This document shows positions 17,064-49,140 of a DNA stretch of 64,000 nt, piece by piece. The first letter of the stretch is position 1, and each line of letters opens with the position of its first letter. A program made the translations under genes and the position numbers. Source of the stretch: an uncultured Candidatus Rokubacteria bacterium (GTDB lineage: Bacteria > Methylomirabilota > Methylomirabilia > Rokubacteriales > CSP1-6); the NCBI GenBank assembly GCA_963762145.1, contig CAVXJS010000011.1, positions 160,001-224,000 of the forward strand, in the 5' to 3' direction. The notes beneath the pieces were generated by a model. That model worked only from the letters and a program-made list of their open reading frames with translations. It ran no database searches and was not told the origin of the DNA.

Positions 17064-19211
17064 CTAGCCCCCGGTGCGGAGGAAGAAGAAGTCGCCGCCC
17101 TCGTGGCCCGCGTACTTGATGGGGGCGTACTCCGGCACCTGGGGTACCGCCCAGCGCTGCGCCATCGCGTTGACCCGCAGCTGCACCCGCTGGAACACAT
17201 CGCGTCCGAGCAGGACGCCGTCGTTCGTCCGGAGCGTCTCGATGAAGATCTGGGCAAACACGGAGTGGGCGCCTCCGGTGTTGTCGAGCACCGGCTCCAC
17301 CCCGCCGGACGTCAACACCAGTCGCGCCCGCTTGTTGGCGAGATTCTGGACCGCGCGGGCGAGCTCTTCCTCGGTCATCGCCGGCTCGAGGCGACCGGAG
17401 GCCGAGCGGGTCAGGGTCGCCGCGTAACACGAATCGGCCACGACCAGCAGGTGCTTGACCGCCATGAGGTTGAGGATGTCGCTCAGATCGATGTTGGAGA
17501 TCCAGTTCGCGGTGTTGCCGGGCTCGGCATCGGTCGGCAGCCAGTAGCCCCGCTGGTTCTTCTGGTCCAGCTCTCCGTGCCCCGCGTAGTAGATCAGCAG
17601 GTTGTCCTTGTCGGTGAGCCGTTGCCGGAGGTCGTTCAGCTCGGAGAGGATCTGGGTCCGCGTCGCGTTGCGCAGGAGCTTCACCTTGAAGCCGTAGCGA
17701 TCTCGCAGGATGCCGGCGATCACCTCGGCGTCGTTGACCGCGGTCTGGAGACGCTTGAATCCCTTGTACTCGTTGTTCCCGATGACGAGCGCGTGATAGG
17801 TCCCGAGCGTCAGCTGCGGAGCCGGCCGGGCCGGCCGCTCGCCCTCGGCGGCGGGACCGGAGCTCGACACCCGGACCCGGTTGGGGACGATCATCTCGAG
17901 GGTCGCCTTGCGCCGGGACCGGTCCAGCGCGAGGACCGTCACGCGCTCGCCCTCCGTCCCCTTGAGCGGCACCCGCGCCTTGAAGAAGCCGTCGCGGTCG
18001 ACGACCTCCTCGCGATCGTTGATGGTCAGCGACTGCAGGCCCCCCGCGGCCTTGACCTTCCCGGCCAGCAACAGCGTGGGGCCGGCGCCGGCGGTCCGGG
18101 TCGGCTGGACGCGGATGTCGCGCGTCAACGCGACGAGCTGGGGCTCGACGATCTGCACCTGGGTGAGCTCGATCTCGGGGCCCGCCTGCTCGCGCTCCCG
18201 GCGGAGCTGATCGAATCCGGCCCGTTGCGCCGCCGAGTCCGCTTCGGTGCGCGCGAGCTGCTCGCGCAGGCGGAGGATCTCGCGATCCTTCTCGGATTGC
18301 TGGCGGCCGGAGTCCTCCTGGGCGCGCGCCAGGCGGGCCTGGAGGGCGCTCGTCTCGCGCTCCTTGTCGCGGAGCCGGGTTTCCGACTCCCCGATCGCCC
18401 GCTGCAGGTCGTTGAGGCGCGTCATCGCGGCCGCGTCGGTGCCCTGGACGGCGGCGCGCTCGCGGCGGAGTCGGTCCAGCTCGGCGCGCGCCGTCTGGGT
18501 GTCCCCCTGGAGCTGGGCGAGGCTCTTGCGCGCCTCGGCGAGACTCCGCTGGTTCTGATCGAGCTCCGCCTGCTTGGCTTGCAGGTCGGCGCGCAGCGTC
18601 TCGACCTGCGCCTCCAGCCGGCGGACGTCGCTCTGCGACGCGCCGGAGGTATTGACCGCGACGCTCGATGCGCCGGTCGCGCGGCCGTACCATTGCGCCG
18701 CCTGCTTCGGGTCCTTCGGGACGCCGAGCCCGTTCTCGTAGAGCACCCCGAGACTCAGCGCGGCCGGCGCAAAGCCTTGCTCGGCCGCGCGGCGGTACCA
18801 TTGCGCGGCGGCCGCGTAGTCCGGGGCGACGCCCAGCCCCTTCTCGTAGATCTCTCCCACGTAGGTCTGCGACTTGGCGTCGCCTCGCTGCGCTGCGTCC
18901 ATCCAGACCTGCAACGCGGTCTTGTAGTCCGCGCGGTCGTAGGCGACGTACTCGCCGCCTCGGATCTCGCAGTCGCGCGCGGTGGTCTTCTCGCCCCGCC
19001 GCGCGCCCAGATAGGTGACCTGGTTGCCGAGCCGGCGAATCTGCCCGGGCAGGAGGCAATCGACGACCAGGAATGCATCCGCGGCCTGGCCGGGCGTCGC
19101 CGGGCGTGGCTCCGCCGCCTTGGGGGCCGGCGCCGGCGCGCAGCTCAGCGCGACGAGCGACAGCATGGCGACGCCGATCCCGCGAATGGTCAGCGCCACG
19201 CGCGGGCTCAC
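17064..19211 (-). CDS. Exported (lipoprotein-like) Sel1-repeat, coiled-coil, caspase-family (C14) peptidase
   Basis: Lipobox VALSC; Sel1 repeats (YEKGLGV, YENGLGV); coiled coil; ALVIGN..Y, YYAGHG and DSCY dyad. Confidence 0.88.
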   Translation of the reverse strand: MSPRVALTIRGIGVAMLSLVALSCAPAPAPKAAEPRPATPGQAADAFLVVDCLLPGQIRRLGNQVTYLGARRGEKTTARDCEIRGGEYVAYDRADYKTALQVWMDAAQRGDAKSQTYVGEIYEKGLGVAPDYAAAAQWYRRAAEQGFAPAALSLGVLYENGLGVPKDPKQAAQWYGRATGASSVAVNTSGASQSDVRRLEAQVETLRADLQAKQAELDQNQRSLAEARKSLAQLQGDTQTARAELDRLRRERAAVQGTDAAAMTRLNDLQRAIGESETRLRDKERETSALQARLARAQEDSGRQQSEKDREILRLREQLARTEADSAAQRAGFDQLRREREQAGPEIELTQVQIVEPQLVALTRDIRVQPTRTAGAGPTLLLAGKVKAAGGLQSLTINDREEVVDRDGFFKARVPLKGTEGERVTVLALDRSRRKATLEMIVPNRVRVSSSGPAAEGERPARPAPQLTLGTYHALVIGNNEYKGFKRLQTAVNDAEVIAGILRDRYGFKVKLLRNATRTQILSELNDLRQRLTDKDNLLIYYAGHGELDQKNQRGYWLPTDAEPGNTANWISNIDLSDILNLMAVKHLLVVADSCYAATLTRSASGRLEPAMTEEELARAVQNLANKRARLVLTSGGVEPVLDNTGGAHSVFAQIFIETLRTNDGVLLGRDVFQRVQLRVNAMAQRWAVPQVPEYAPIKYAGHEGGDFFFLRTGG

Positions 19212-20239
19212 CGGCTGATCTCCAGCTCGATCATGGCGCGGGCCTGTTCGCGCAGCGGGATCGACTTGGCGGCCACGTTGATGTCGCGGGTGACGCGAGA
19301 CACGCGATCGGTCGTCGAGGGAAACACCGCGCCGGGCGAGGAGAAGTCGGTCGCGAGGAACAGCACCGGCTTGAGGGTCAGCAGGGCGTAGACGAGCTCC
19401 ACGCCGGGAGGGCCCTTCAGCTCGAGCTCGTAGCTATCGGTGGCCTCGGGGATCCGGTACGTGCGTCCCGCCTTGACGCCGTGCCCCCCGGAGAAGCGGT
19501 TGGGATAGAGAATCGTCACTTCCCCGCTCGTCCCGACGTTCACGATGGTGAGGAACGCGTCCCGATTGGACTCGAAGCCGAGGCTCAGTCGCTCGCCGAC
19601 ACGGTACTTCGACTTGTCCGCCCAGAGCCTCACCGTGACGCCATCATCGCCGGCCGCCTTGGGCGCCGACGCGGGCGGGGGAGCGGGCGCGGCCGGGGCG
19701 GCGGGCGTGGGAGCGGCGCCGGCCGCCGACGCCTTCGTATCGACGAAGAAGCCCGTTTCCTTCTGCTCGGGCCCGCCTCCGCGAGTTGCAGGGCCCATCC
19801 GCTCGACCGTGGTCGTCACCGCGTACCATCCTTCGGCCGCGTCCCGGGGCACGTCCACCCGGTACTCGCTCAGGACGTTGCCGCCCGGTCGCGCGATCAC
19901 GCGCTCGATCCGTGCCAGGACGAGGCCGTCGTAGCGAATGATCCGGGTTTCTCGGACCTGGCTGGACTCCGGGACCTCATAGCTCGCCCGGAGCGTGGCC
20001 GCTTCCCCCGGCTGCAGTCGGGGCCGTTGCACCGCGGTCTCGCCGAGGGCCAGCTGCTTGGTGCCAGATCGGGTGGTCACGTTGGTGTCCCGATACTGTC
20101 CGGCTTGCCAGCCCCCTTGGGCGAGGGCGAAACTTTTGCGTAGCAGGACCGCGGGAACGAGGGCCAGGGCCAGCAGGCCGGCGATCACCCCGAATCGGAG
20201 GAGTCGTTCGAACCGGCGGGCGACACGGGGGACGGGCAT
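19208..20239 (-). CDS. Exported DUF4384-domain protein
   Basis: Signal peptide; C-terminal DK..Y.VGE..., FLTIVN..G.VTILYPN, PPG.E pattern. Confidence 0.75.
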   Translation of the reverse strand: MPVPRVARRFERLLRFGVIAGLLALALVPAVLLRKSFALAQGGWQAGQYRDTNVTTRSGTKQLALGETAVQRPRLQPGEAATLRASYEVPESSQVRETRIIRYDGLVLARIERVIARPGGNVLSEYRVDVPRDAAEGWYAVTTTVERMGPATRGGGPEQKETGFFVDTKASAAGAAPTPAAPAAPAPPPASAPKAAGDDGVTVRLWADKSKYRVGERLSLGFESNRDAFLTIVNVGTSGEVTILYPNRFSGGHGVKAGRTYRIPEATDSYELELKGPPGVELVYALLTLKPVLFLATDFSSPGAVFPSTTDRVSRVTRDINVAAKSIPLREQARAMIELEISR

Positions 20240-20288
20240 CGTCTTCCTCTCGGAAGGGGCTCCCGCAAGCGCAGCCCCAACGCGATTT

Positions 20289-20480: not shown

Positions 20481-23400
20481 ATGATCTATCTCAAGCATGT
20501 CGAGGGAAGCAAGCGCGGCCAGGTCGAGGAGTTCGATCTCGAGCGCATTCGCATCGGACGCCACCCCGACAACGATCTGAAGTTCGATCCCGGTGCGGAC
20601 CGGGAGGTCTCCGGCCACCACGCCGAGATCCTCTGTCAGGGAGAGCAGGTCTCGATCCGCGATCTCCAGAGTCGCAACGGCACCCTGGTCAACGGGCGCC
20701 GGATCAATCAGACGACGGTCCTCCGGCACGGGGACGCCATTCAGTTCGCGCCCACCGGCCCCAAGGTCATCTTCTCGCTGGGCGAAGCCGAGTCGGGCAC
20801 CGGCACGATGGTGATCGATCGCGATCAGGTCGTCGCCGCATCCCGGTCGGCCCCCGAGCCGGCGGCCCCGGCCGCGTCCCGGCCCTCGGCCGCGCCGCGC
20901 CGGAAGACCTTCGTGCTGGCCGGCTTGATCGTGGTGCTCCTGCTGGTGGTCGCGCTCCTCGCCGTCGCCGCTTGGCGCTCGTGGACCCTCTTCTTCGTGC
21001 TCCTGGGTGTGGTCGTGCTCCTGGCCATCGCGGGCGCGGTCACGTGGTGGTGGACGCGGAAGCGTGCCGGGACCGCGGCGTCGCACGCCGACGCGAGCCG
21101 GCGGGCCGGCGACGAGCCCGGTCCCGCGCCGGGCGAAGCGACCGGGGACACGATCCGGGAGCTGCGGGCGAAGTGGAGCCAGGCCCTGGCCCGGCTGCGC
21201 GGCTCCAAGCTCGGGGGGCCGGACGACGACGCGGTGGGGGCGCTGCCGTGGCTCGTGGCGCTCGGCGAGCGCGGATCGGGGAAGAGCGAGCTCATCAGGG
21301 CCGGCAATCCGCCGGCGTCCGTCTCGACGGTCCGGCAGGCGGTCTCGGGGACCCGAACGTGCGACTGGTGGTTCTTCGACGGCGCCGTGATCCTCGACAC
21401 GCCCGGACGGTATGCCTTCCCGGTCGACGCGCGGGGCGACGGGCGTGAGTGGGAGGAATTCCTCTCGCTGCTGCGCGGCGCGCGACCGGTCGACCCCCTC
21501 AACGGCGTCATCGTCACGGTGGCGGCCGACTCCCTCGCGGCCCGGTCGGCCGCGAGCCTCAAGGACGAGGCCACCCAGATACGCCGGCGGCTCGACCACC
21601 TGACCCGGCGGGTGGGAGTGAGACCGCCCATCTATCTGGTCGTGACCAAGATCGACCTGCTGGCCGGCTTCCGGGAGTTCTTCGCCGACGTGCCCGAGGC
21701 GCACCGCAGCCAGGCCATGGGCTGGGTCAGCGAGGACGGGCGTGAGGAAGCCCCGGGGAGCCTCTTCGTCCGGGCGGTCGACACCGTCGCCAGACAGCTC
21801 GATCGCCTGCGCCTCTCCGTCCTGGACCGACGGGACACCGATGCGCAGGTCGGGCGCCGGTTCCTGTTCCCCGAGGAGTTCCGGGCCCTCGCGCGACCCC
21901 TCCATGCCTTCGGCGAGGCCCTGCTTCGCGCCAATCAGTACGATGAGACTCCCTGGTTCCGGGGCGTGTTCTTCACCTCGGCGCCGGGCGACGGGGCGCC
22001 CTCCTCGTACCTGGCCCGGACCCTGGGCCTGGAGGACGGCGTGCCGTCGGCGGGGTCGCGCGCGGCCGGCTCCCTCTTCGTCCGCGATCTGTTCGGCGCG
22101 ATCCTGCCGAAGGACCGCGAGCTGGTGCGGCGCACCGGAGCCACGCGCCATCGCCACCGTGGCGGCCGCCAGAAGGCCCTCTACGCCGTCGGCGCCGGCG
22201 CGGCGGTCCTGTCGCTGTTGCTGACGGTCTCCTTCGTCCGGAACTCGCGGGCTCTCGCCCGCCTCGACGTGAGCCCCTGTCTCGGGTCGGCGGGATCCGC
22301 CGCGGGCGCCACGCTGGGCGGCCGCCTCGAGCGCCTCGACCGGTGTCGGAACACGCTGGCGACGCTCGTACCCCACGGCTTCTGGGCCCGCGCCACGACC
22401 GACTTCTGGCTCCGTCAGGCCGAGCGTCTCGAGGGCCCCATCGCACGCCGGTACGTGGAGGTATTCAAGGTCGAGGTCGAGGGGCCGATCGATGGAGCCG
22501 TCGATCGCGCGCTCGCGCCGGGGCCGAAGGCCCCCGTCGTCGTCGGCGCGGTGCTCCAGCGGATCGCGCTGGTCGGCCGATGCCGGACCGACGGCCGCTG
22601 CCCGACCGACGACGCCGGCGCCTGGCCCAGCTATCGCACGCTCCTCGGCGCCGCGGAGCCCAGGGCCCAGGACAACGAGGAGACCGTGAAGGCCCTCCGG
22701 CGGACTCACGCCGCGTACCTGGAGCTGCACGCCGATCCCGCTGCCCTCGACGAGATGCGCGCCCGCGACGTGGCCCGCGTCAGTCGATGGCTGAGCGCGG
22801 GCGGGTTGCGGACCGAGTGGGTCCTCGCGTCCGCCACCAGTCAGTTCGCGCCGGTGCGCTCGCGAGATTTCTGGGCGTGGGACGGTCCGCTCCAGGTCGA
22901 CGCGCCGTTCACCGGCCGGGCCTGGGGCGAGGCCATCCAACCGCTGACGCAGGGCCTGCGAGCCCTCGCGCCGAACGCGGCCGACGTGCGTGACGCGGTC
23001 GCGCGATTCGAGAACGACTACCGCACCGAGGCACTGCGTCAGTGGGGGCAGTTCCTGATCGGCTTCCCGCAGGAAGAGCGGGTGCTGGGCGGGCGGCGCG
23101 GGTCGCGCGATCTCGCGGTGCGGTCCCTCGAGGCGGAGTCGCCGTATCGACGCGTGCTCGACCAGGCCGCCGCCGATGTCGGCGCGATCGTCGGCCCGGC
23201 TCGCGGCGACGCCGACCTGCCGGCCTGGGCCGGCACGCTGCTGCGCTACGCGGCGCTGCGCAAGATGGCGGCGAGTCCGCCGCCCGCGCCCGGACAGAGG
23301 CCGGCCGACCCGAAGGCGCAGCCCACGGAGGCCGAGCGTCTGGCGATGGGGTACGTCAAGGGATACGGCGAGGCCCTGGATCAGCTCAAGGGCGAGCTGG

Positions 23401-23885
23401 GCGGTCCGGAGAAGGCCTACGCCTCGGTTCAGAAGGTGTTCGACGAGGGAGAGTCGAGCGAGCGGAGCGTGCACCCGGTGCACAAGACCCTCTGGAATCT
23501 GCGCGCCCTCCGCAACCAGATCGGCGCGCGTCAGGGCGACGACCGCATCGTGTGGGATCTGCTCTCCCGGCCGGTCACCCTGGTGTGGCGGACCATGCTC
23601 GGGGAGGCCGCTCAGCAGGTGCAGGGCGTGTGGGAGGCGATGATTCCGGGGCTCACGGGTCTGACCCCGGGCCTCCAGGCCACCCGGATCATCGAGTTCG
23701 CCAACACCGGGCCCGCGGGGCCGCTACTCGAGCGGTCGAGAGATCGGTACGTGGTGCGCCGCTTCCTCGGGGAGGGCGCCCCGCTGTCACCGGGCTTCGT
23801 CGATTTCATCTCGCGCATTCGCACGATGCCGGTCGAGCGCCTGGACAAGATCGACCCGCCACGCCTCATCGTCACATCCTCATGA
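20481..23885 (+). CDS. tssM: FHA domain-TssM/IcmF fusion (T6SS membrane complex)
   Basis: FHA motifs IGR..S.HH..SRNGT; 2 TM; LPW, GERGSGKS, CDWWF, DTPG, PLNG, YLVVTKIDL..GF.EFF, RGVFFTS; third TM. Confidence 0.85.
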   Translation: MIYLKHVEGSKRGQVEEFDLERIRIGRHPDNDLKFDPGADREVSGHHAEILCQGEQVSIRDLQSRNGTLVNGRRINQTTVLRHGDAIQFAPTGPKVIFSLGEAESGTGTMVIDRDQVVAASRSAPEPAAPAASRPSAAPRRKTFVLAGLIVVLLLVVALLAVAAWRSWTLFFVLLGVVVLLAIAGAVTWWWTRKRAGTAASHADASRRAGDEPGPAPGEATGDTIRELRAKWSQALARLRGSKLGGPDDDAVGALPWLVALGERGSGKSELIRAGNPPASVSTVRQAVSGTRTCDWWFFDGAVILDTPGRYAFPVDARGDGREWEEFLSLLRGARPVDPLNGVIVTVAADSLAARSAASLKDEATQIRRRLDHLTRRVGVRPPIYLVVTKIDLLAGFREFFADVPEAHRSQAMGWVSEDGREEAPGSLFVRAVDTVARQLDRLRLSVLDRRDTDAQVGRRFLFPEEFRALARPLHAFGEALLRANQYDETPWFRGVFFTSAPGDGAPSSYLARTLGLEDGVPSAGSRAAGSLFVRDLFGAILPKDRELVRRTGATRHRHRGGRQKALYAVGAGAAVLSLLLTVSFVRNSRALARLDVSPCLGSAGSAAGATLGGRLERLDRCRNTLATLVPHGFWARATTDFWLRQAERLEGPIARRYVEVFKVEVEGPIDGAVDRALAPGPKAPVVVGAVLQRIALVGRCRTDGRCPTDDAGAWPSYRTLLGAAEPRAQDNEETVKALRRTHAAYLELHADPAALDEMRARDVARVSRWLSAGGLRTEWVLASATSQFAPVRSRDFWAWDGPLQVDAPFTGRAWGEAIQPLTQGLRALAPNAADVRDAVARFENDYRTEALRQWGQFLIGFPQEERVLGGRRGSRDLAVRSLEAESPYRRVLDQAAADVGAIVGPARGDADLPAWAGTLLRYAALRKMAASPPPAPGQRPADPKAQPTEAERLAMGYVKGYGEALDQLKGELGGPEKAYASVQKVFDEGESSERSVHPVHKTLWNLRALRNQIGARQGDDRIVWDLLSRPVTLVWRTMLGEAAQQVQGVWEAMIPGLTGLTPGLQATRIIEFANTGPAGPLLERSRDRYVVRRFLGEGAPLSPGFVDFISRIRTMPVERLDKIDPPRLIVTSS

Positions 23886-23907: not shown

Positions 23908-25245
23908 ATGACGCAATCGGGCAAGGTCGTATGGGGTGAGGGCATGTTCCTCACGCCCCATCTCTTCCAGCAGGCGGATCGCCATCACGAGCACGTGCTC
24001 GACTTCCGGCTGCGCGCGGTCGTTCCGTTCGGCTGGGGCTTCGTCGAGCTGGAGCTGGACGACGAGGCGGTGACCAACGGCGACATCGCGGTTCGGCGCT
24101 GCGCGGGCGTGCTGCCGGACGGGCTCGTCTTCCAGGTGCCGCAGCCCGACCGCGGCCCGAGCAGCCGCTCGATCAAGTCGCACTTCTCCGTCTCGACCGA
24201 CCGCGTGTCGGTCTACCTGGCGTTGCCGGTGGTCCGCGAGGGGACGAACGTGCGCCTCGACGGCGCGGGAGGCGGGCCGCCCACGCGATACGAGACCGAG
24301 ATGGTCCGGGTCGCGGACGAGACGGCCGAGGACAACGAAGGCGAGATCCCGTTCGCGCGGAAGAACTTCCGGCTGCTCTTCTCCGGCGAGGCGCTCGACG
24401 ACACCGTCTCCATGAAGCTGGGGGAAGTCACCCGGACCGAGTCGGGGGCGTTCCGGCTGTCCGAGTCGTTCGTGCCCGCCTCGCTGACGATCCGCTCGTC
24501 TCCCCGGCTTCTCGCGATGCTGCGCGAGGTGCTGGAGCTGCTGAGCGCCCGGAGCACCTCCCTCGGGTCCCAGCGACGCCATCTCGCCGACTTCTCGCAG
24601 TCCGACATGGCCACGTTCTGGCTCCTGCACACCGTCAACTCCTGGATCCCGCTGCTCGCCCACATCGCGGCGTCTCCCGACCATCATCCCGAGCGGGTGT
24701 ACGTGGCGTTCGCTCAGCTCATCGGCCAGCTCTCGAGCTTCGCCCTCGACAGCGATCCCCGGGACGTGCCGGTGTACGACCACGATCGCCTGGGCGACGT
24801 CTTCAGCGAGCTGGTCCGCCGGATCCGCACCCTCCTCGACACGGTCATCCCGATCCGGTACGTGATCATCCCGCTCGTGCGGACCCGGGACCTCCTGCAC
24901 GTGGGGCGGGTCGAGGACGAGCGGCTGCTCCAGACCGCCCAGTTCTATCTGGGGGCGGACGCCAAGATGCCCGCCGGCCGGCTCGTGGAGGAGCTTCCCG
25001 CCAAGTCCAAGATCAGCTCCCCGGACCACGTCGGCGACCTGATCGGGCGCGCGGTGCCCGGGGTGGAGCTGCTGCACGAGCCGGTCCCGCCGGCCGCGAT
25101 TCCGGTGCGCGCGGGCTTCAAGTACTTCCAGCTGAGCCGGCACGGGCGCGCGTGGGAAGCCATCAACCGGGCCAAGGCGCTGGCGCTGTATCTGCCCGAT
25201 GACTTCCCGGAATTGAAGCTTGAATTAGTCGCTATAAAGTCGTAG
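23908..25245 (+). CDS. tssK: T6SS baseplate subunit TssK
   Basis: VVWGEGMFL.PH.FQQ.DR, G..PDG, HPE..Y, YDHD, YFQL. Confidence 0.95.
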   Translation: MTQSGKVVWGEGMFLTPHLFQQADRHHEHVLDFRLRAVVPFGWGFVELELDDEAVTNGDIAVRRCAGVLPDGLVFQVPQPDRGPSSRSIKSHFSVSTDRVSVYLALPVVREGTNVRLDGAGGGPPTRYETEMVRVADETAEDNEGEIPFARKNFRLLFSGEALDDTVSMKLGEVTRTESGAFRLSESFVPASLTIRSSPRLLAMLREVLELLSARSTSLGSQRRHLADFSQSDMATFWLLHTVNSWIPLLAHIAASPDHHPERVYVAFAQLIGQLSSFALDSDPRDVPVYDHDRLGDVFSELVRRIRTLLDTVIPIRYVIIPLVRTRDLLHVGRVEDERLLQTAQFYLGADAKMPAGRLVEELPAKSKISSPDHVGDLIGRAVPGVELLHEPVPPAAIPVRAGFKYFQLSRHGRAWEAINRAKALALYLPDDFPELKLELVAIKS

Positions 25246-25303: not shown

Positions 25304-26386
25304 ATGTCCTCACCGGAGACCGTCGATTTCGAGTCGCTCCTCGCCCCCATTCCCGGGGACAAGCCGGGGGGAGAGTCCATCCGCTATGCCGGCCCCTACG
25401 ACGCGATCGAGGACGCACGGCGGGCCGACGACGAGCTGACCCAGGGGGACTGGCAGCGCGACACGAAGACGTCGGACTGGCGCCGCGTCGTCGATCTCGC
25501 GGGCGACGCGCTCTGCAAGCGCAGCAAGGATATCCAGGTCGCGGCGTGGATGACCGAGGCGCTCATCCGCCTGCACGGCTTCGCCGGCCTGCGCGACGGC
25601 AGCCGCCTCCTGCGCGAGCTGAGCGAGCGATTCTGGGACCATCTCCATCCCGAGGCGGAGGGGGACGATCTGGAGGGCCGCGCCGGGCCCATCGAATGGA
25701 TGAACCAGCGCCTGCCCGAGGCGGTGCGCTTCGTGGCGATCGCTCAGTCGAGCCAGGGAGACAAGTACGGGTGGTGGCACTGGCAGGAGTCCCGCTCCGT
25801 CGACAACCTCGGCCGGACCAACCCGGAGGCGAAGGCCGCCGCGCTGGCCGAGGGGAAGATCTCGGGCGAGGATTTCGACAAGGCGGTGGGGACGCTCCGG
25901 CGCGTCCACTACGAGCAGGTCTTCGCGGACGTCACGCAGGCGGGCGAGCAGATCCAGGCCTTGATCGCGGAGGTCGATACCCGCTTCGGACGGAACGCGC
26001 CGAGCCTCGTCGCGCTGAAGCAGGCCGCCGAGGACTGCCGCGCGCTCGTCGAGACGATCGTCAAGCGGAAGCGGGAGCTCGAGCCCGACGCGGCGACGAG
26101 CGAGGCCGCGCCGGGCGAGGAAGCGCCCAGCGCGACGGGCCGCCGGGGCGCCGCCCTGGGCGATCGAGCGGCCGCGCTGCAGCAGCTCGCCGAGGTCGCG
26201 GCGTTCTTTCGCCGCACCGAGCCGCACAGCCCCGTGTCCTATCTGGTACAACGAGCCGTGCAGTGGGGGCACATGCCGCTGGAGAACTGGCTCCGTGACG
26301 TCATCAAGGACGAGACCGTCCTGGCCAATCTCCGCGATACGCTGGGTCTGAAGGAAGGGGCTCCGGGGGCGGACAGCGCTCCCTAG
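25304..26386 (+). CDS. tssA: T6SS TssA (ImpA)
   Basis: LLAPIPGD.PGG, SKDIQVA.W, FWD.LHP, FFRRTEPHSPVSYL. Confidence 0.93.
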   Translation: MSSPETVDFESLLAPIPGDKPGGESIRYAGPYDAIEDARRADDELTQGDWQRDTKTSDWRRVVDLAGDALCKRSKDIQVAAWMTEALIRLHGFAGLRDGSRLLRELSERFWDHLHPEAEGDDLEGRAGPIEWMNQRLPEAVRFVAIAQSSQGDKYGWWHWQESRSVDNLGRTNPEAKAAALAEGKISGEDFDKAVGTLRRVHYEQVFADVTQAGEQIQALIAEVDTRFGRNAPSLVALKQAAEDCRALVETIVKRKRELEPDAATSEAAPGEEAPSATGRRGAALGDRAAALQQLAEVAAFFRRTEPHSPVSYLVQRAVQWGHMPLENWLRDVIKDETVLANLRDTLGLKEGAPGADSAP

Positions 26387-41525: not shown

Positions 41526-42400
41526 GGGAGCCTGACCGAGAATCCGGACGAGACCTGACCCCGGATCCGGGCCGCGGACGGGAGCTCGATGGTCATCGTC
41601 ACGGTGTACGGTCCCTCGGCCGCGTCGGCGGGAACCGTCAGGCGCTGCTCGCTGGCGTAGGTCCCGGGAGCGACCGTCACCGTCTTCTCGAGGCGCCGCA
41701 GATCCTGGTCCCCGAACCGGATGGTCCGGGTCTCCTTGACCACCATCGGCGGGACCTCGGGCGGGGCGATGATCGTATAGGTGACCGCGAGGACGACCTG
41801 GGCTCCGGGCCGGAGAGAGGAAGGCGCCGCCGCTCCCCGCTCGACCTTGAGCACGATGCCGTGCTCCGGCTGGTAGTGGTACGCGAGCGCGACCTCGGCG
41901 CCGCTCTTCAAGCGGGAGATATCGGTGCCGACCGGCGGCGCGTCCGACGCCGGTCGGGGAGCCGGCGCGCCGGGCGGCGGCGCCGGGGTCGTCGTGGCGG
42001 GCCCGGGGGCCGTGGCCACGGGCCGTTCTCGCACCACCACCTCGCCGCGTCTCGGGACGAGCTCGACGCCGCCGCGGCTGAGCCCGGTCACCGTATACGG
42101 GTAGGTGCCCGCGGCGCCGAAGCGAGCCGTGTACACGCCGGACTTCGAGGACACGGCCGGCATGGTCGCCACGCGGTCGAACTCTATCTTGATCTCGCCC
42201 CGGGCGGGATCGCCGTTCACCCACGTCAGCTGCTCGCCGGGCTCCGCGCCGATCGACTCGGCCGAGAGCGGGTAGCCCGGAACGAGGGGGATGATGCGAC
42301 CGGACGGGGCGGGTGTCGCGCACGCGGTCAGGCTCGAGAGCGCCACCACCAGAGTGCCGAGTAGCCGGCTCACGGACTGCCGTCTCGTGGACGTTGGCAT
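41522..42400 (-). CDS. Lipoprotein: cupredoxin-like domain, Pro linker, beta-sandwich domain
   Basis: Lipobox SLTAC; PGEQLTWVN.D...F..AGTYPY without Cu ligands; C-domain resembles N-domain of 19208-20239. Confidence 0.65.
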   Translation of the reverse strand: MPTSTRRQSVSRLLGTLVVALSSLTACATPAPSGRIIPLVPGYPLSAESIGAEPGEQLTWVNGDPARGEIKIEFDRVATMPAVSSKSGVYTARFGAAGTYPYTVTGLSRGGVELVPRRGEVVVRERPVATAPGPATTTPAPPPGAPAPRPASDAPPVGTDISRLKSGAEVALAYHYQPEHGIVLKVERGAAAPSSLRPGAQVVLAVTYTIIAPPEVPPMVVKETRTIRFGDQDLRRLEKTVTVAPGTYASEQRLTVPADAAEGPYTVTMTIELPSAARIRGQVSSGFSVRLP

Positions 42401-42535: not shown

Positions 42536-44329
42536 ATGAAGTACTGCCCCGTCTGCGAGACCGACTATCCGGACGACGTCAAGGTCTGTCCGCAGGACGG
42601 TGCCACGGTGCGCCGGCCGGGCGAGCGCGCCGATCCATTCCTCGGCCGCGTCATCAAGGGGCGCTATCGCGTCGAGCGCCAGGCCGGGCGCGGCGGCATG
42701 GGGACCGTGTACCTGGCCGAGCAGCTCAGCGTCGGGCGGAAGGTGGCCCTGAAGGTCCTCCGGGGCGACTTCGCCCGCGAGGAAGGCTTCGTCGCGCGCT
42801 TCCAGCAGGAGGCCAAGCTCGTGGCGAGCCTGAACGAGCGGCGGAATCCGCGCGTCACCCTGGTCCACGACTTCGACCAGACCGAAGACGGCAGCGTGTT
42901 CATCGTCATGGAGTGGCTGGAGGGCCGCGTGCTCAACGAGGTGATCCAGCGCGACCGGGGGCTCGACCTGCCCCGCGCGGTCCGGCTCGCCACCCAGATC
43001 GCCGAAGGGCTGGAGGCCGCTCACCGGACCAATGTCGTGCATCGTGACGTGAAGCCGCAGAACATCATGGTGCTCGAGGCGGGTGACGACATCAAGCTGA
43101 TGGACTTCGGCATCGCCCGCCTGCGCGACTCGGGAACGAACCTCACCCGGACCGGGACCATGATGGGCACGCCCGCCTACATGTCCCCCGAGCAGATCGA
43201 AGGGCAGGAGATCACCGAGAAGACCGACATGTACGCGTTCGGCATCGTGCTGTACGAGATGTTGACCGGGGTGGTCCCGTTCCGGGCCAGCACGCAGGCC
43301 GCCGTCCTCACCAAGCAGCTCCAGGAGCAGCCGGTGCCGCCGTCCCGGCTGCGACCGGAGATTCCGCAGGAGCTGGAGGCGATCGTCCTCAAGGCGCTCG
43401 AGAAGGATCCGGCCAAGCGCGAGCGGGACATGGCCGCCATCGTGCGTGCCCTGCGCGAGATGTCGCGACGGCTGGGGGAGGTCTCGACGGACACCTCTGC
43501 CGCCGCCGGCGCGCCGACGCTCGTCGTCGAGCGCCCGACGGCGCCGCGGCCCGAGGCGCCCCGGCCCGAAGCGCCGGATCCCACGATGCAGGTCGAGCGC
43601 ACGTTTGTCGCGCCGCGACCCCAGGCGTCGCATGAGCCGGTCCCGAGTGCCACCATCGTGCGGTCCGAGACGCTTCAGGAGAGCCCCACGCCCGGGCCGC
43701 CCGGCCGGTCGGCGTCGCACCTGGGGAGGGGATTGGCGATCGGCGGGGCCATCGCGGCCGTCCTGGTCGCGGCCGTCGGTACCGTCGTCTACCTGGTGCG
43801 GGTGCCGCCGCCCGCCTCCGCGCCGACGGCCTCCGCGCCGGCCCCGGCGACGCCGACGACCAGTCCTCCCCAGGTCTCGGCCGGCACTCCGGCCGCGTCG
43901 GGAGGTCCGCAGATCGTGCCGCCGAGGCCGCCGGCCCCGGTCAGTCCGCCGGAGCCGGTCGTGCCGCCGCCCGTCCAGTCACCGCCCGCTCCGGAGGTCA
44001 AGGCCCCCGCTCCTCCGAGGCCCGCTTCGCCGCCGCGCCCGGTCGCGCCCGCGCCCAAGCAGTCGGTGGCCGTCGCGAAGCCGGATCCGGCGAGCCCGGA
44101 CGGCCTCCGCGCGCGGCTGGAGGAGCGCCTCCGCAGTCGCGGACTGCTCCGGGGCAGCGGGTCCGATCCGAACACGGGGGTGACGGTCGAGGTGGGGCCC
44201 AATGGCGTCGTCACCTTGCGGGGGATCGTCCGGGACGCCACGCAGCGTGACGAGGCGGCGAACCTGGTGCGCATGGCCGGGGTGAACGAGGTCCGTCTGC
44301 GCGTCAACGTGCAGAGCAGCTGGAACTAG
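42536..44329 (+). CDS. Membrane Ser/Thr kinase (PpkA-like) with N-terminal Zn ribbon and C-terminal BON-like domain
   Basis: CPVC..CPQD; GRGGMG, VALK, HRDVKPQN, DFGIA, GTPAYMSPEQ; TM; GVVTLRG..V.EV. Confidence 0.9.
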   Translation: MKYCPVCETDYPDDVKVCPQDGATVRRPGERADPFLGRVIKGRYRVERQAGRGGMGTVYLAEQLSVGRKVALKVLRGDFAREEGFVARFQQEAKLVASLNERRNPRVTLVHDFDQTEDGSVFIVMEWLEGRVLNEVIQRDRGLDLPRAVRLATQIAEGLEAAHRTNVVHRDVKPQNIMVLEAGDDIKLMDFGIARLRDSGTNLTRTGTMMGTPAYMSPEQIEGQEITEKTDMYAFGIVLYEMLTGVVPFRASTQAAVLTKQLQEQPVPPSRLRPEIPQELEAIVLKALEKDPAKRERDMAAIVRALREMSRRLGEVSTDTSAAAGAPTLVVERPTAPRPEAPRPEAPDPTMQVERTFVAPRPQASHEPVPSATIVRSETLQESPTPGPPGRSASHLGRGLAIGGAIAAVLVAAVGTVVYLVRVPPPASAPTASAPAPATPTTSPPQVSAGTPAASGGPQIVPPRPPAPVSPPEPVVPPPVQSPPAPEVKAPAPPRPASPPRPVAPAPKQSVAVAKPDPASPDGLRARLEERLRSRGLLRGSGSDPNTGVTVEVGPNGVVTLRGIVRDATQRDEAANLVRMAGVNEVRLRVNVQSSWN

Positions 44330-44330
44330 G

Positions 44331-45494
44331 ATGGCCGCGACCCCGCCCGCAAAGCCCGCCGACACGCCGGCTCGATCCGGCACGCCGCTGCGCCACGTCT
44401 TCACCGACCTGATCGCCTACGCGCTCCTGTTCCGCGAGAGCTGCGCGGAGCGTACGTGGACGCCCGCGGAGCTTCGAGATCGCCTGACCGCGCTCATCGA
44501 CGCTCAGGAGCGCCGGGCGCGTGGCGGTGAGGTCTCCTGGGATTCCTACGTCGAGGCGCGCTACGCGGTCCTGGCGTGGGTCGACGAGCTGATCATGAAC
44601 TCGCCCTGGCCGCACCGGGGCGACTGGCCGCATCTGATGCTCAAGTACTACGGCACGCTCAACGCGGGGAAGCAGTTCTTCGAGCGGATCGAGCAGCCGC
44701 CCGCCACCGAGCGCGACGTGATGGAGATCTACTACTTCTGCCTGGCCCTCGGGTTCGAGGGGAAGTTCGCCCTGGCGGAAAACCCGCGGACTCTGTCGGA
44801 GCTCAAGCAGCGGCTTCACAACCAGCTCGTCGCGGCGGGCGGGGGCGTGCACCTCTCCGAGGCCCGCCTCTTCCCCGAGGCCTACCGGCGTCCCCCTGCT
44901 CCCGCCCCGCCTCCGGGACGGTCGTGGTTCGGCCTCTGGCTCGGGCTGATCGTGGCCGTGCCGATCATCCTCTTCGTCGTCTACCTGTCGCTGCTCCGAT
45001 CCGCTGCCGACGCACGCATCAGGATGCTCACGCAGCCGGTGGCGCCGGCACCGGTCGTGATTCCGGGGTGGAACCTGACGCTGGTCGAGGAGCTGCGGCG
45101 CCGCGGGGTGGACGCCCGCGACACGCCACGGGGGGTGGTGATCACGCTGCCCGGCGTCTCGTTCGAGGTGAACCGCTCCGAGCTCAACCCGGCGGGAGAG
45201 CGGAGCGTCCGGGATGTGGCGGCGGCCCTCCTGCGCCTGGCTCCCGAGCGCCACGTGGCCGTCGAGGGGCACGCGAGCCGGGAGAAGGGCACCCTGGACG
45301 AGCAGAATCAGCGCCTGTCGGACGAGCGGGCCCGGCGGGTCGGCGAGGTCCTCCTGGAGTCGGGGCTCCGGCGCGACCGGATCACCTCCCGGGGGCTCGG
45401 CTCGAGCACCCCGGTGGCGTCCAACGAGACCGAGGACGGGCGTCGCCTCAACCGACGGGTGGAAATGACCGTAGAAAAGGTAGATGGGCGATAA
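44331..45494 (+). CDS. tssL: TssL/DotU-OmpA fusion
   Basis: YA.LAWVDE, AG..FF, E.YY.CLALGF.GK, TM, VEGH..N..LS..RA..V, NRRVE. Confidence 0.93.
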   Translation: MAATPPAKPADTPARSGTPLRHVFTDLIAYALLFRESCAERTWTPAELRDRLTALIDAQERRARGGEVSWDSYVEARYAVLAWVDELIMNSPWPHRGDWPHLMLKYYGTLNAGKQFFERIEQPPATERDVMEIYYFCLALGFEGKFALAENPRTLSELKQRLHNQLVAAGGGVHLSEARLFPEAYRRPPAPAPPPGRSWFGLWLGLIVAVPIILFVVYLSLLRSAADARIRMLTQPVAPAPVVIPGWNLTLVEELRRRGVDARDTPRGVVITLPGVSFEVNRSELNPAGERSVRDVAAALLRLAPERHVAVEGHASREKGTLDEQNQRLSDERARRVGEVLLESGLRRDRITSRGLGSSTPVASNETEDGRRLNRRVEMTVEKVDGR

Positions 45495-45602: not shown

Positions 45603-46814
45603 ATGAGACAGATGCGGGCGGTCGTGTCCATGGTGGTAGCGGTCAGCAGTGTGCTGCTGGCACTACCGGTAGCGGTCAGTGCGCAGGGCGGCTTGGGCCT
45701 GAATGACACTATCATCCGTGCCCTCAGCAGCGACGGCGCGGGGTCCAACTGCACCGGATTGGGAGGTCCCGGGAACACCCAGGGCTCCCTCTTTAACCTC
45801 TGCGGCTCGGTCCCCCCCGCCGGCTCTGCGAGTAGCTCAGGTGGCACTCCCACCGTCGATAGCCAGCTCGGCGCGAGTCAGGAACAGCGCCGTCAGGCGG
45901 AACGCCTGGCCGAGCGGCGGGCCGGGAAGGGTGGTGCCGCCGACCAGTTGCTGAGCCCCGGGTTCGGCCTGTTCGTCAACGGGGACTACCAGTTCCTGAA
46001 CAAGGACAACACCCGGTACGAGACCGGCTTCGAGCAAAACACCGTAGGCACGACGTTTGGCCTCGACTATTCGTTCGGAAACCGGGCGGTACTGGGCGCC
46101 GCCATCAACTACGCTCACGAGTTCGGCGATTTCGCGGGGCCGACCGGCGGGTACAACAACGACGCCATCGGCCTGACGCTCTACGGGACCGTTGCCCCCA
46201 TGACGAATCTCTTCATCGATGGGTTCATCGGTTATGTCCGGAAGGAGTATTCGATCGACCGGCGCATCAAGATTCAGCTGGACAACAATGCGGTGGCCGC
46301 GGGGCTCATCGAGGGTGACACGCACTCGGACGAGTTCAACATCGGGACCAACATCGGCTACGATTTCATCCTCGGGAATTTCACGGTTGGCCCCCGGGCT
46401 GGTGTGAACTACCTGGATCGAAGGCTGGCGGGCTACAAGGAGTCCGGGAGCACCGGGATCGAGCTGGACTACGACAATCAGAACATCTCGTCGCTGACCA
46501 CAACCCTCGGGGTCTTCGCCTCGATGGCGGTGAGTACTCGGTGGGGTGTGCTGGTTCCTCAGGCGGCTGCCGAGTACGTGCACGAGTTCCTGAACAACCA
46601 GCGCACGGTGGGGTTCCGGTTCGTCGATACGATTTCCCAGCCGCGGCTCCTGTTCCGGACCGACACGCCCGATCGCGATTTCTTCAACCTCGGGGTCGGC
46701 GCGGTCTTCGTCCTGCCCAGTGGGATGTCGACGTTCGTGAACGTGCGTCAGCTGCTCGGGTACGACACGCGGCGGGCGACCAACGTGACGGTCGGGCTGC
46801 GGATGGCCTTCTAG
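45603..46814 (+). CDS. Autotransporter beta-barrel protein with very short passenger
   Basis: Signal peptide, short Cys-pair region, helix linker, amphipathic strands (GLDY, Y.ESG, EYVHEF), C-terminal Phe. Confidence 0.8.
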   Translation: MRQMRAVVSMVVAVSSVLLALPVAVSAQGGLGLNDTIIRALSSDGAGSNCTGLGGPGNTQGSLFNLCGSVPPAGSASSSGGTPTVDSQLGASQEQRRQAERLAERRAGKGGAADQLLSPGFGLFVNGDYQFLNKDNTRYETGFEQNTVGTTFGLDYSFGNRAVLGAAINYAHEFGDFAGPTGGYNNDAIGLTLYGTVAPMTNLFIDGFIGYVRKEYSIDRRIKIQLDNNAVAAGLIEGDTHSDEFNIGTNIGYDFILGNFTVGPRAGVNYLDRRLAGYKESGSTGIELDYDNQNISSLTTTLGVFASMAVSTRWGVLVPQAAAEYVHEFLNNQRTVGFRFVDTISQPRLLFRTDTPDRDFFNLGVGAVFVLPSGMSTFVNVRQLLGYDTRRATNVTVGLRMAF

Positions 46815-47607
46815 GACGAGGTCGCGGACGCGACCTCGCTCAGGATCCGGGGCCAGCGCGCCGCCCAGCAGCACACGTGGTCGAACTCGGGCACGACCAC
46901 GCAGCCGTCCGCGGCCGGTGACGCCGCGACGGACGATGTCGGCCGGCACCAGGCGATCGCGGCCGCCCGCGTAGTGGATCTGGACCACCCGGTCCGGGAG
47001 CGGGGGCTGCCGGGCGGGGTTGAGCGAGCCGACCAGGCGCAGGTCCCCGTGTAGGTCCGTCCACGCGTCGATGTCGAGGTTGGCCGCCACCGTGATCACG
47101 GCCACCGACTGTGGCACGCGAGAGGCCAGCAGCACGGCGAGCGTCCCGCCCCCGCTGTAGCCGAACCACACGACCTCCTCCACCCCCTCCGAAGCGAGGA
47201 TCCGTTGCACGGCGGCCACCATGCTGGCCAGCACGGTCTCGGAGTAGCGCGCCGAGGTCCACAAGGCATCCGGACACGACGGCTCATCGCCGAGACCGTG
47301 GTAGCAGGGCCGGCCCAGGTACGCGCTGGCGACGGGGTCCTGCGCCATCAGCTCCAGCGCGAGAGGTCGCCGCGGGGTGGGGTCTCGAGTGGGAAGCCCG
47401 GCCAGCCACGGGATGCCGTCCCCCTCCAGGTAGACGTGGAGGCGGCGGGTGGCGGGTTCCCGGTTCCTGATCAGCAGATGCTCGAACGGCGCCCCTCGCA
47501 CCCGCCCTTCCGAGAGCCCGAGGGCCGCGACTCTGCCGCGCGAACTCGCTCGAGGGCCCGGCGCACGCGGTCGCGGCGAGAAGCAGGCACGCGACCAGGA
47601 GCCTCAT
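46811..47607 (-). CDS. Lipoprotein alpha/beta hydrolase (frameshifts near 47510 and 46900)
   Basis: Lipobox ATAC; VYLEGDG, RPCY, W..ARYS, GYSGG nucleophile elbow, AANLD, SLNP, G..D..VP. Confidence 0.8.
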
Positions 47608-47698
47608 TGACTCGCGGCCGCCGTTCGTGATACTTGCCCATCCACAGCGGCCCGGGGGGCGCCCTCGGGCTGGATCGGTCGTGAACGGAGGGGTATCA

Positions 47699-48202
47699 AT
47701 GGCTAGGACGCTCCGAGCCTCGGCACTTCGCCTCGTCATCCTGGCCGGCCTGATCGCGCTCGGCGGAACCGCGGATGCTCAAGGCCGGCTGCTGCTGCTG
47801 AGCCCGGACGAGGCGGTCCGGCTGCGCCTGGGTCGCGACGAGCGGCTCGTGGTCGGGCCCACCCTGCGCGGAGCGACCGGGCCCCGCATCCTGGTGCAGG
47901 AACCGCTCGTCAAGCAGACCGCGAACGGGGCCGTGATCGAGACCACGCCGGCCACCAGCTTCTTCATCGTGTTCGAGCCGAACGGCTCTCCGGTCGACAT
48001 GGAGTCGCTCGAGATCAAGGCGAAGAAGGGCATCCTGTCGATGTCGCTGACCCCGCGCCTGAAGCCCTTCATCGAAGGGACCAGCCTGAAGGCGGGGAGC
48101 GTGACCGTTCCGGAGGGACGTTTCCTCATCCAGATCGAGATCCTCGACAAGTCCGGGGCCAAGGCGGTGGAGCAGTACCGCCTCGACGTGCGCGGTAGCT
48201 GA
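47699..48202 (+). CDS. Exported hypothetical beta-rich protein
   Basis: GGAGG RBS, signal peptide ending ADA, coding-like codon usage. Confidence 0.65.
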   Translation: MARTLRASALRLVILAGLIALGGTADAQGRLLLLSPDEAVRLRLGRDERLVVGPTLRGATGPRILVQEPLVKQTANGAVIETTPATSFFIVFEPNGSPVDMESLEIKAKKGILSMSLTPRLKPFIEGTSLKAGSVTVPEGRFLIQIEILDKSGAKAVEQYRLDVRGS

Positions 48203-48243
48203 GTCATCCTCCGGGTCCCGCGTCTACAGGGCGGGTCCCGCGT

Positions 48244-49140
48244 CTACGGGGTCCCGAACAGGATGGCGTTGAAGTTCTTGCGGAACACGTCCAGCGAGAT
48301 CGTCGGCCGCTTGACCAGCATCGGGTCGTACAGCTCGATGCGGCCGCCCTTCATGCCGAGCACCGCGAAGCCGTGCCAGGACGACACGTCCTCGGCGTCG
48401 TCCTTCGACGCGGCCATCGTGGGGATCCGGGACGCATTGTCGGCGGCGGTCTTGATGCGCGCATCGTCGGTCTTGCCGGTGACGGCGAAGCCGTCGGGCT
48501 TCGCCCCCACCACGACCTCCCAGATGGCGTTCGCGGTCAGCCCCTTCGAGTCGAGCGCTTCGTATCCGCCTTCCTTCACCGCGTAGGCCTTCTCGATCGC
48601 GCAGGCCCAGATCACGCTGTTCGGCGACCGCATGTAGGCCGGCGTCCAGTTGCGATCGGCGTCGTCCGTGTAGAGCACGCTGCTGACCTCGAACGACTTG
48701 CCGCCCAGCTTCACCGTGAAGTAGCGGGTCGTCTGGATGACGTTGCCGGGCGGCGGCTCTTCGATGCGGTCCGCCACCGCGGAGAGATCCGTCTCGACGA
48801 TGGCGGCCTGCTCGGCGACGATGGCGTCGATCCGCTTCTGGCCCGCGGCGGTGTAGGCCAGCGCCGCGAGGAGAGCCGCGAGCGGACAGTTCGCGAGCGC
48901 TCCCTGGGTGACGTCCGCGAGCGCCGGGGTGGTCTTGGCATAGAGGCTCCACGGCACGTCACGGGCCACGATGGTCTTGGCGCCGCCCGCGGGCGGAGGC
49001 ATCACGAGCTTCTTGACCACCTTGCCGACCTGCTTCGGGGCCATGAAGATTCCGGAGCCCACGCTGAGCGGGCCGGGGAGGCGACCACCTCCCGCGGGGA
49101 GCGGGCCCAGCGGTCCGGGGAGGCGCGATTGCTGGGTCAT
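48244..49140 (-). CDS. Calpain-like (C2) papain-fold cysteine protease
   Basis: QGALANC..AA..AAL, W...IEKAYA..GY..L, H.FAV, LYDP (Cys-His-Asp). Confidence 0.8.
   Translation of the reverse strand: MTQQSRLPGPLGPLPAGGGRLPGPLSVGSGIFMAPKQVGKVVKKLVMPPPAGGAKTIVARDVPWSLYAKTTPALADVTQGALANCPLAALLAALAYTAAGQKRIDAIVAEQAAIVETDLSAVADRIEEPPPGNVIQTTRYFTVKLGGKSFEVSSVLYTDDADRNWTPAYMRSPNSVIWACAIEKAYAVKEGGYEALDSKGLTANAIWEVVVGAKPDGFAVTGKTDDARIKTAADNASRIPTMAASKDDAEDVSSWHGFAVLGMKGGRIELYDPMLVKRPTISLDVFRKNFNAILFGTP

Follow-up and report, generated by a model that had tools for sequence, protein, structure and literature searches.

The window analysed here, a stretch of 64,000 nucleotides from contig CAVXJS010000011.1 of an uncultured Candidatus Rokubacteria bacterium (assembly GCA_963762145.1; genome G000 below), carries an island for a type VI secretion system (T6SS) in which an FHA domain is fused to the inner-membrane protein TssM. 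The island comprises 24 genes in the block 17064-49140, between tsaE (16601-17047) and radC (49222-49929). Pfam and NCBIfam matches gave the order FHA-tssM, K, A, B, C, hcp, E, F, G, H, vgrG and, as a second unit, a kinase gene, tssL with an OmpA domain and an autotransporter barrel gene, which is the arrangement that an initial annotation of this DNA, made from its letters, had described, with its separate kinase-tssL unit between tsaE and radC. The genes of the secretion system and the methyltransferase gene discussed with it are as follows.

20481..23885, + strand: FHA-TssM, 1134 aa, with FHA at 1-100 (Pfam/models)
23908..25245, + strand: TssK (Pfam/NCBIfam)
25304..26386, + strand: TssA (ImpA_N, TIGR03363; Pfam/NCBIfam)
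26415..26944, + strand: TssB, with one assembly indel, end approximate
26937..28427, + strand: TssC, with 11 assembly indels, intact in G011 and G015
28465..28950, + strand: Hcp (Pfam/NCBIfam)
29017..29763, + strand: TssE, containing an extra segment of about 85 aa similar to DnaA domain I
29763..31574, + strand: TssF (Pfam)
31538..32647, + strand: TssG (Pfam)
32644..35317, + strand: TssH/ClpV, with 8 assembly indels, intact in relatives
35317..37233, + strand: VgrG, 638 aa, without a C-terminal effector extension
37822..39324, - strand: PKMT-like protein-lysine methyltransferase (PF10119 and PF21782; PDB/Pfam)
42536..44329, + strand: Ser/Thr kinase with an N-terminal CxxC..C knuckle, intact catalytic motifs, one membrane helix and a periplasmic BON domain
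44331..45494, + strand: TssL with a periplasmic OmpA-type peptidoglycan-binding domain and a Thr-containing N-terminal tail

These genes support an undescribed variant of the type i T6SS (T6SS-i), in which TssJ and the domain of TssM that binds it are missing together throughout a clade of genomes, and in which a PKMT-like gene, so called after the Rickettsia methyltransferases PKMT1 and PKMT2, is tied to the system. An undescribed variant had already been proposed in the initial annotation, and the joint absence of TssJ and the TssM beta domain, together with the PKMT-like linkage, now gives that proposal a stronger basis. The clade comprises 11 genomes (G000, G011, G015 and G061-G068), all of them incomplete metagenome-assembled genomes (MAGs), and is spread over Methylomirabilota, Binatia and other deltaproteobacterial MAGs; G000, G011 and G015 belong to one genus, and G000 is 88% complete with 5.4% contamination. 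The sheath, tube, spike and ClpV parts of a T6SS-i (TssB/TssC, Hcp, VgrG, ClpV) and its baseplate proteins (TssA, E, F, G and K) are all encoded on the island, and TssL and TssM are recognized by their DotU and IcmF_N matches in Pfam, the score of the window TssM against TIGR03348 lying under the whole-protein cut-off, as it does for two TssMs of the sister group described below.

The FHA domain of TssM, noted from the start, was matched by PF00498 (E 2e-19), and its fold was confirmed by a fold search (Z about 18). It is followed by two hydrophobic helices, an NTPase-like IcmF_N region with a Walker A motif, a third helix and an all-helical periplasmic part, a membrane topology read from hydrophobicity and a structure model rather than from a topology predictor. 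A protein search returned 45 clusters combining FHA with IcmF_N at 38-99% identity (70 matches overall), and neither IcmF_C nor PF21070 was found in any of the 45. Across 37 aligned full-length sequences (1117-1184 aa), the FHA residues G26, R27, S44, H47, N66 and G67 are invariant, and the Walker A motif is present in most members. A tree of the shared TssM core, rooted at the midpoint only, groups the 11 clade rows with a support of 99.

The nearest TssMs without an FHA domain, mostly from Desulfobacterota and here called the sister group, align with the clade proteins as far as residue 1112 and have about 155 aa beyond it, while the clade proteins stop within 0-32 aa among the matches listed. 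Clade positions 946-1111 were placed on sister positions 9-182 at 99.5% in a profile alignment, and modelling of the final 330 residues of a sister-group TssM gave a beta sandwich at 187-305. This C-terminal region matches TssM structures of enteroaggregative Escherichia coli (EAEC; 6IXH, E 1e-10, and 4Y7L/M/O), and its model aligned with 6HS7 residues 777-1107 at Z 13.1 and a root-mean-square deviation of 5.4 over 288 residues. Sequence searches for an IcmF_C identity of the sister tail returned no PDB or Pfam match and an hhalign probability of 22%, and it was because the fold searches settled the matter that the tail was assigned as the TssM C-terminal beta domain. When the complete FHA-TssM model was the query of a fold search, the matches were mostly to FHA domains and included no TssM chain, and the periplasmic part was therefore compared via the sister model. 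The model of the window TssM has a helical remainder and no beta domain of the sister type. Because both groups end in P-x-x-I/V/L (a loose pattern, found in 37/37 clade and 21/21 sister sequences), the difference is explained by an internal deletion, and a loss within the clade is the parsimonious direction, since the sister, Granulicella and canonical rows with visible C-termini keep the domain. Judged from these sequences, the clade TssM has lost its C-terminal beta domain (C2-like, TssJ-binding) by internal deletion, a feature that had not been noticed in the initial annotation. The truncated protein is conserved down to 38% identity.

TssJ (PF12790) was found in 0/11 clade genomes versus 24 of the 25 genomes with the nearest full-length TssM, counts that leave out three metagenome loci and that, coming from incomplete and related genomes, are to be read as a pattern and not as a statistic. 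The sister matches reached E 7.5e-11 or better, and the one sister genome without a match is the Entotheonellaceae genome G088. Within G000, neither TssJ nor IcmF_C was found, with a control match in E. coli, although the IcmF_C negative is weak because the sister-group beta domain itself gives no match to PF06744. Two parts of a canonical TssJLM complex, TssJ and the C2-like domain of TssM, are thus missing from what was recovered of these 11 incomplete genomes. The initial remark that no tssJ is visible holds for the PF12790 search of G000, whereas the accompanying remark that PAAR and pppA are not visible does not hold genome-wide, with a PAAR gene on contig C7 and a PP2C gene on contig C17 of the same genome (as C19 and C22 below).

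The second distinguishing feature is the PKMT-like gene. Its product is homologous over its full length to Rickettsia PKMT1 and PKMT2 (PDB 5DNK, E 5e-72; 5DOO, E 6e-63), with S-adenosylmethionine-binding, PF10119 and winged-helix domains, and is predicted to methylate lysines. The gene lies inside the T6SS cluster in 10/11 clade genomes, mostly co-oriented and in the hcp-tssE interval. In a survey of 251 genomes of the phylum Methylomirabilota, a full-length FHA-TssM was found in 5 and a PKMT-like gene (E 1e-20 or better) in 6, namely all five FHA-TssM genomes and G234, whose PKMT-like gene has 34% identity and lies on a contig other than that of its canonical tssM. Among the phylum genomes with a non-FHA TssM match, the gene occurs in 1/14, and it occurs in 0/132 sister loci, 57 of which span tssC to tssF. 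The PKMT-like gene is thus the accessory most tightly tied to the clade, and because it tracks the tss genes, not the barrel, the enzyme is predicted to act most likely on a component of the machine or on its cargo. In G289 (L247), a PKMT-like gene lies between vgrG and a kinase gene, with tssM on another contig.

By its sheath sequences, the system is provisionally placed as an i4-like T6SS-i. TssC is 65% identical to its closest relatives, from Ralstonia and a Granulicella plasmid, and clade TssC shares a radiation with the Ralstonia, Azospirillum and E. coli plasmid proteins, the references from Rhizobium/Burkholderia (SciI), Vibrio and Pantoea lying outside it. In a quick TssC tree of 50 rows, 14 clade rows group at 96 within the i4-like radiation, the order inside which is not settled; the TssC trees used nine plasmid references, and the i4a/i4b subtype labels of the reference sheaths are those we presume to apply.

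A phosphorylation pathway is suggested by the motifs of both a membrane Ser/Thr kinase and a probably phosphothreonine-competent FHA. All 11 clade genomes have 1-3 membrane kinases beside tss genes, most with the N-terminal cysteine knuckle. TssL carries the OmpA domain in 8/10 other clade genomes versus 0/7 sister genomes tested; long-form TssL is common in general. PppA is not encoded on the island, and since pppA-like and tagJ-like genes are each present in the T6SS loci of 6/8 more distant members, the lack of both here is a local loss. Elsewhere in the genome, genes for an FHA protein, a Ser/Thr kinase, a lipoprotein and a PP2C cluster at C17:55968-59473; this cluster, some 12 kb from a further caspase gene, is a possible source of the phosphatase that the island lacks. 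TagF gave no match in G000, in a weak search whose control was silent everywhere. No Pfam family of TagQRST (FGE-sulfatase TagR, ABC transporter TagST) was present among the island proteins, in agreement with the initial view that the accessory set is not TagQRST. The PAAR protein of the system is likewise encoded off the island, at C7:1639-2172, together with a DUF4123 adaptor (C7:735-2172 for the pair); this contig end (C7:1-2172, L001) also holds a cut-off probable effector, and the three are probably cargo of the island VgrG.

Comparison with known systems helps to delimit what is new, and the papers marked with an asterisk are cited from a part of their text. With the i4-like T6SS-i of the Ralstonia solanacearum megaplasmid, Azospirillum, an E. 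coli plasmid and Granulicella, the system shares TssA-C, E-H, K, L, M, Hcp and VgrG; it differs in that TssJ was not found, the beta domain is deleted, FHA sits on TssM, tssL lies apart from tssK-tssM and a PKMT-like gene is in the cluster. The nearest TssM is that of the Desulfobacterota-type tssJ-K-L-M loci (Geobacter, Geomonas, Desulfovibrio, Syntrophus; L052-L121), with 24-35% identity along the helical periplasmic part, but those loci keep TssJ and the beta domain, their TssL is without OmpA in 7/7 tested, and neither FHA on TssM nor a PKMT-like gene occurs in the 132 loci. In EAEC, TssM binds TssJ through its C-terminal beta domain (PMC10564176*). A T6SS without TssJ is in itself already known, from Acinetobacter and from a Granulicella plasmid without annotated tssJ. 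The Acinetobacter baumannii complex (TsmK, TslA/AsaA, TagX) is alike in having no TssJ, yet its TssM keeps the TssJ-interaction region, with a GS linker and TsmK added, while here the beta domain is wholly gone (PMC10564176*). TsmK is listed as a factor of tssJ-less loci in a 2026 review of T6SS accessory factors (PMC13584744*), and no island gene is annotated as TsmK, no search aimed at it having been made.

The phosphorylation parts resemble those of two other systems. In Agrobacterium tumefaciens, PpkA acts on Thr14 of TssL, and the phosphorylated protein is recognized by Fha with the help of an Arg/Ser pair (PMC3953482*); the membrane kinase, the peptidoglycan-binding domain of TssL and the FHA Arg/Ser pair all have counterparts here. 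In Acidovorax, TssM and TssL are both partners of Fha, assembly is Fha-first, and the inner-membrane complex forms without TssJ (bioRxiv 2023.12.21.572528*). Both differ from the present system in having a free Fha and TssJ, whereas here FHA is covalently part of TssM and neither pppA nor tagF is on the island. The Rickettsia enzymes PKMT1 and PKMT2 (5DNK, 5DOO) are alike over their full length, including the regulatory and winged-helix domains; they methylate surface proteins such as OmpB/Sca5 (PMC9553169*), whereas the present gene goes with a T6SS, and the fetched loci of most carriers are without an autotransporter gene. The word 'methyltransferase' appears nowhere in the main text of the 2026 review (PMC13584744*). 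In the literature covered, with supplements and most subscription papers outside its scope, no FHA-TssM fusion, beta-less TssM or T6SS-linked lysine methyltransferase was found, nor a T6SS description for these uncultured soil and groundwater lineages.

The remaining genes of the island are listed below.

17064..19211, - strand: caspase lipoprotein with Sel1 repeats, a coiled coil, an Ig-like part and a C14 domain (H545/C595 dyad)
19208..20239, - strand: exported DUF4384 protein (Pfam)
37260..37781, - strand: 173-aa possible metallopeptidase with the HExxH-type motif HEGLH, shared with G011 but not G015
39365..40030, + strand: 221-aa protein of no known family
40041..41525, - strand: second methyltransferase (MTS and DUF7059, IHPPY motif, HemK/PrmC-like), start approximate
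41522..42400, - strand: two-domain lipoprotein without a family assignment for either domain, candidate substitute for TssJ
45603..46814, + strand: autotransporter-type beta barrel with a very short passenger
46811..47607, - strand: alpha/beta-hydrolase lipoprotein (GYSGG motif), with two assembly-error indels
47699..48202, + strand: exported 167-aa protein of no known family, in G000 and G015 only
48244..49140, - strand: calpain-like (C2) protease without a signal peptide (Cys85/His256), in G000 and G015 only

Pfam matches bear out the two methyltransferases (at 37822 and 40041), the caspase, the DUF4384 protein, the autotransporter barrel and the calpain-like protein that had been reported at first, and the zincin-like protease has its HEGLH motif and no Pfam match; the alpha/beta-hydrolase lipoprotein had been overlooked. 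The idea that these accessory genes belong to the T6SS survives for the PKMT-like gene (10/11) and not for the caspase and barrel, which mostly occur without a T6SS. In the 251 Methylomirabilota genomes, the caspase lipoprotein was found in 28 and the barrel in 23; the two are adjacent in 16 other genomes, of which 14 have no TssM match, and the hydrolase completes the trio in 8/11 fetched loci with caspase and barrel, where there is no core tss match. Next to the clade T6SS, the caspase occurs in 4/11 genomes and the barrel in 2/11, and with these counts the further proposal that the system has its own envelope-sensing and outer-membrane modules is not supported as a property of the clade. 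The three genes are those of a stand-alone caspase-barrel-hydrolase(-kinase) module, with barrel and hydrolase likewise convergent, but the caspase gene here lies 26 kb from the barrel, at the opposite end of the island; no description of such a module was found in the literature. The trio is an older, independent envelope module that shares the island and does not define the T6SS, and a role as dedicated T6SS parts across the clade was rejected, the module occurring mostly without a T6SS. It may feed signals to the kinase. Stand-alone caspase-barrel(-hydrolase) loci were seen at L233, L235, L236, L238-L244 and L251, two of them beside large kinases or PP2C.

Among the other accessories, the second methyltransferase occurs in 6/11 clade genomes and also in the canonical T6SS of G026. 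The 221-aa protein adjoins the methyltransferases in 6/11 clade genomes; its 22 homologues include none with a family, and one homologue gave no usable Atlas match. A CxxCxxCC protein is present in 5/11 clade genomes and not in the window. No occurrence outside the genus was seen for the HExxH protein, the calpain-like protease or the 47699 protein. The calpain-like protein has two N-terminal PGPL(G/S) repeats and could be T6SS cargo.

Taking the parts together, we consider it probable that the FHA-TssM T6SS assembles from the inner membrane outward, under control of a kinase and held by the peptidoglycan, without a TssJ ring. Kinase-gated, inside-out assembly is proposed because the kinase gene adjoins tssL and FHA sits on TssM, as if the Agrobacterium and Acidovorax parts had been hard-wired. 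The membrane kinase would sense an envelope cue via its BON domain and phosphorylate a Thr in the TssL N-terminal tail, in the TssM linker or in itself. The tethered FHA would then bind the phosphothreonine and lock TssM-TssL into an active platform, much as free Fha does in Agrobacterium, with TssL-OmpA providing the anchor to peptidoglycan. The baseplate would be docked by TssK, and the sheath, Hcp tube and VgrG-PAAR spike would assemble, with the PAAR, DUF4123 adaptor and probable effector coming from contig C7. The spike would traverse the helical TssM cage and then the outer membrane without the canonical TssJ-TssM tip, and lysines of a machine part or cargo would be methylated before export by the PKMT-like enzyme. 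Firing, phosphorylation and methylation of the machine are all predicted here from genes. In its full form, the proposal is that the clade has dispensed with a dedicated outer-membrane channel, so that a peptidoglycan-anchored TssLM cage, switched by the tethered FHA, fires through the cell's own outer membrane, with machine or cargo lysine-methylated; this we put forward as a tentative possibility.

How the T6SS opens or crosses the outer membrane is unsettled, and the TssJ-bound beta domain of TssM is thought to be responsible; a conserved natural clade without either would be a direct test of whether this tip is needed. The FHA-TssM fusion lends independent genomic support to inside-out, Fha-led assembly, and with the PKMT-like gene there is a first candidate, open to testing, for a T6SS-dedicated methyltransferase. 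If true, the channel-less reading would mean both a new trans-envelope build for the T6SS and a kind of post-translational modification new to it.

Several observations weigh against this proposal. The clade MAGs are incomplete and non-independent, and a TssJ could be encoded in unassembled sequence or be too diverged for PF12790. Addition of the G088 sheath to the TssC tree splits the clade, as it joins the Methylomirabilota members, and monophyly is then neither established nor rejected (p-AU 0.09). The system of G064 is without a PKMT-like gene, and in the 251-genome sample of the phylum of G063, a PKMT-like homologue lies away from tssM in 5 genomes besides G063, in one of them beside vgrG. 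The island is without a phosphatase. There is no clade-wide phosphosite: most relatives have an [ST][ST]W-like motif in the TssL tail, which the window TssL, with its threonines, does not show, and the TssM linker threonine is just 70% conserved.

A somewhat doubtful alternative, near to the view of the initial annotation, is that a non-homologous outer-membrane partner replaces TssJ and differs between sub-lineages, as Acinetobacter offsets its missing TssJ by lineage-specific proteins (PMC10564176*). The stand-in would be the barrel or the 41522 lipoprotein in the window, an exported protein of 260-300 aa in the Binatia-type genomes, and CsgG-like or glycine-zipper lipoproteins in G061. The barrel gene directly follows tssL; an exported protein of no family adjoins tssM, tssL or kinases in G064, G065, G066 and G068; and G061 has a 303-aa exported protein with a Phe end upstream of tssL, with a CsgG-like lipoprotein near. 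The C-terminal domain of the 41522 lipoprotein recurs on a G061 lipoprotein, but it also occurs beside TssJ-containing systems (G026, L194). No outer-membrane gene or other candidate is common to the whole clade, though several sub-lineages have an exported protein beside tssL or tssM, and the barrel comes from a module that mostly occurs without a T6SS. An autotransporter barrel is moreover too narrow to pass the Hcp tube, and could anchor the machine but not conduct it.

It is unlikely that the system is of the ordinary i4-like kind, with genes for TssJ and the TssM beta domain located off the island and missed through divergence or incomplete assembly. The 88% completeness of G000, the location of PAAR and PP2C away from the island, and the invisibility of the sister beta domain to PF06744, which weakens the IcmF_C negative, are all in its favour; yet PF12790 succeeds in 24/25 sister genomes (E 7.5e-11 or better) and in 0/11 of the clade, and a split gene is at odds with a deletion that is internal and leaves the terminal motif in place. 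A decaying or repurposed machine that no longer injects, releasing for example into the periplasm or medium only, is very improbable, for although assembled tssB, tssC and tssH have frameshifts, no clear effector-immunity pair is on the island and the part that reaches the outer membrane is lost, the checked indels are missing from near-identical contigs, G011 and G015 carry unbroken copies of the genes, conservation of the truncated TssM extends down to 38% identity and relatives have Rhs, PAAR and adaptor genes.

Relative to both G011 and G015, in which tssB, tssC and tssH are intact, the window has frame-breaking indels in tssB (1), tssC (11) and tssH (8), and at least 9 of these 20 are missing from near-identical short-read contigs among the matches listed, as are both indels of the hydrolase gene (46811-47607). 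The best-matching short-read runs may be the source sample and thus gauge assembly accuracy only. The checked frameshifts in tssC, tssH and the hydrolase gene are assembly errors, and true pseudogenisation is ruled out for the checkable indels, which are not present in those contigs. In one metatranscriptome, short contigs 95-98% alike cover tssB, tssC and hcp, with almost nothing over 37000-49300; these matches, a small share from a related strain and possibly DNA, were not used as evidence. In relatives, vgrG is followed by genes for Rhs, PAAR-Rhs, DUF4123 and extended VgrG proteins, of which the Rhs, PAAR-Rhs and adaptor genes point to a putative interbacterial weapon.

Two other genomes of the genus, G011 and G015, also have the island, with a nucleotide identity of about 77-91% and in G015 at the identical site, and the site is empty, with tsaE adjoining radC, in three relatives (G017, G026 and G034). 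No tRNA gene, no clear GC shift and, among its genes, no integrase was found, so that a mobility mechanism was not found.

The DnaA-like domain reported in TssE is present in a qualified sense: the insert matches DnaA_N in Pfam at E 3.5e-4, under the cut-off, and is 41% and 36% identical to the N-termini of both dnaA genes of G000, and it was seen in G000, G011 and G015 only. It was rejected as a clade trait, since these are only three genomes of one genus and L125, with a 70%-identical TssM, has a TssE of 164 aa. The two dnaA genes of G000 are full-length (C22:168.4 kb and C19:71.7 kb), with binning as a possible source given the 5.4% contamination.

The C-terminal domain of the 41522 lipoprotein resembles the N-terminal domain of the DUF4384 protein (19208-20239), the shared region being about 110 aa at 41% identity and of no known family. 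In G061 it is carried by a glycine-zipper/SH3 lipoprotein and in G026 it is joined to a PP2C, and the Atlas entries that resemble it are unnamed clusters from Myxococcota and Thermodesulfobacteriota. The exported family of 260-300 aa, with no Pfam match, lies near T6SS genes of four Binatia-type genomes (L215:14632-15498, L210:576-1385, L051:3204-4016, L048:5804-6583 and L213:348-1256); in a hydrophobic-alternation test, these and the G061 exported protein were not separable from controls, their barrel look being by eye only.

G088 (L253-L256, L114) has two sheath sets, no TssJ match, a TssM that retains the beta domain, and a PKMT-like gene transcribed divergently from tssE-F; it was rejected as an evolutionary intermediate because the two sheath sets lie on unlinked contigs and their pairing is unreadable. 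The Desulfobacterota-type tssJKLM operon (L052-L121) is accompanied by two sheath types, with TssB about 70% or about 40% identical to that of the window, and two sheath types with one operon type suggest possible module swapping. The T6SS of the Granulicella plasmid (L224, NC_015057.1) has two tssK genes, PP2C, tagJ and no annotated tssJ, and its TssM apparently keeps the beta-rich C-terminus, by eye. Downstream of the G065 T6SS, a protein resembling a TssB-TssC fusion is encoded at L211:9098-10651, and the VgrG there has a DUF6782 metallopeptidase extension.

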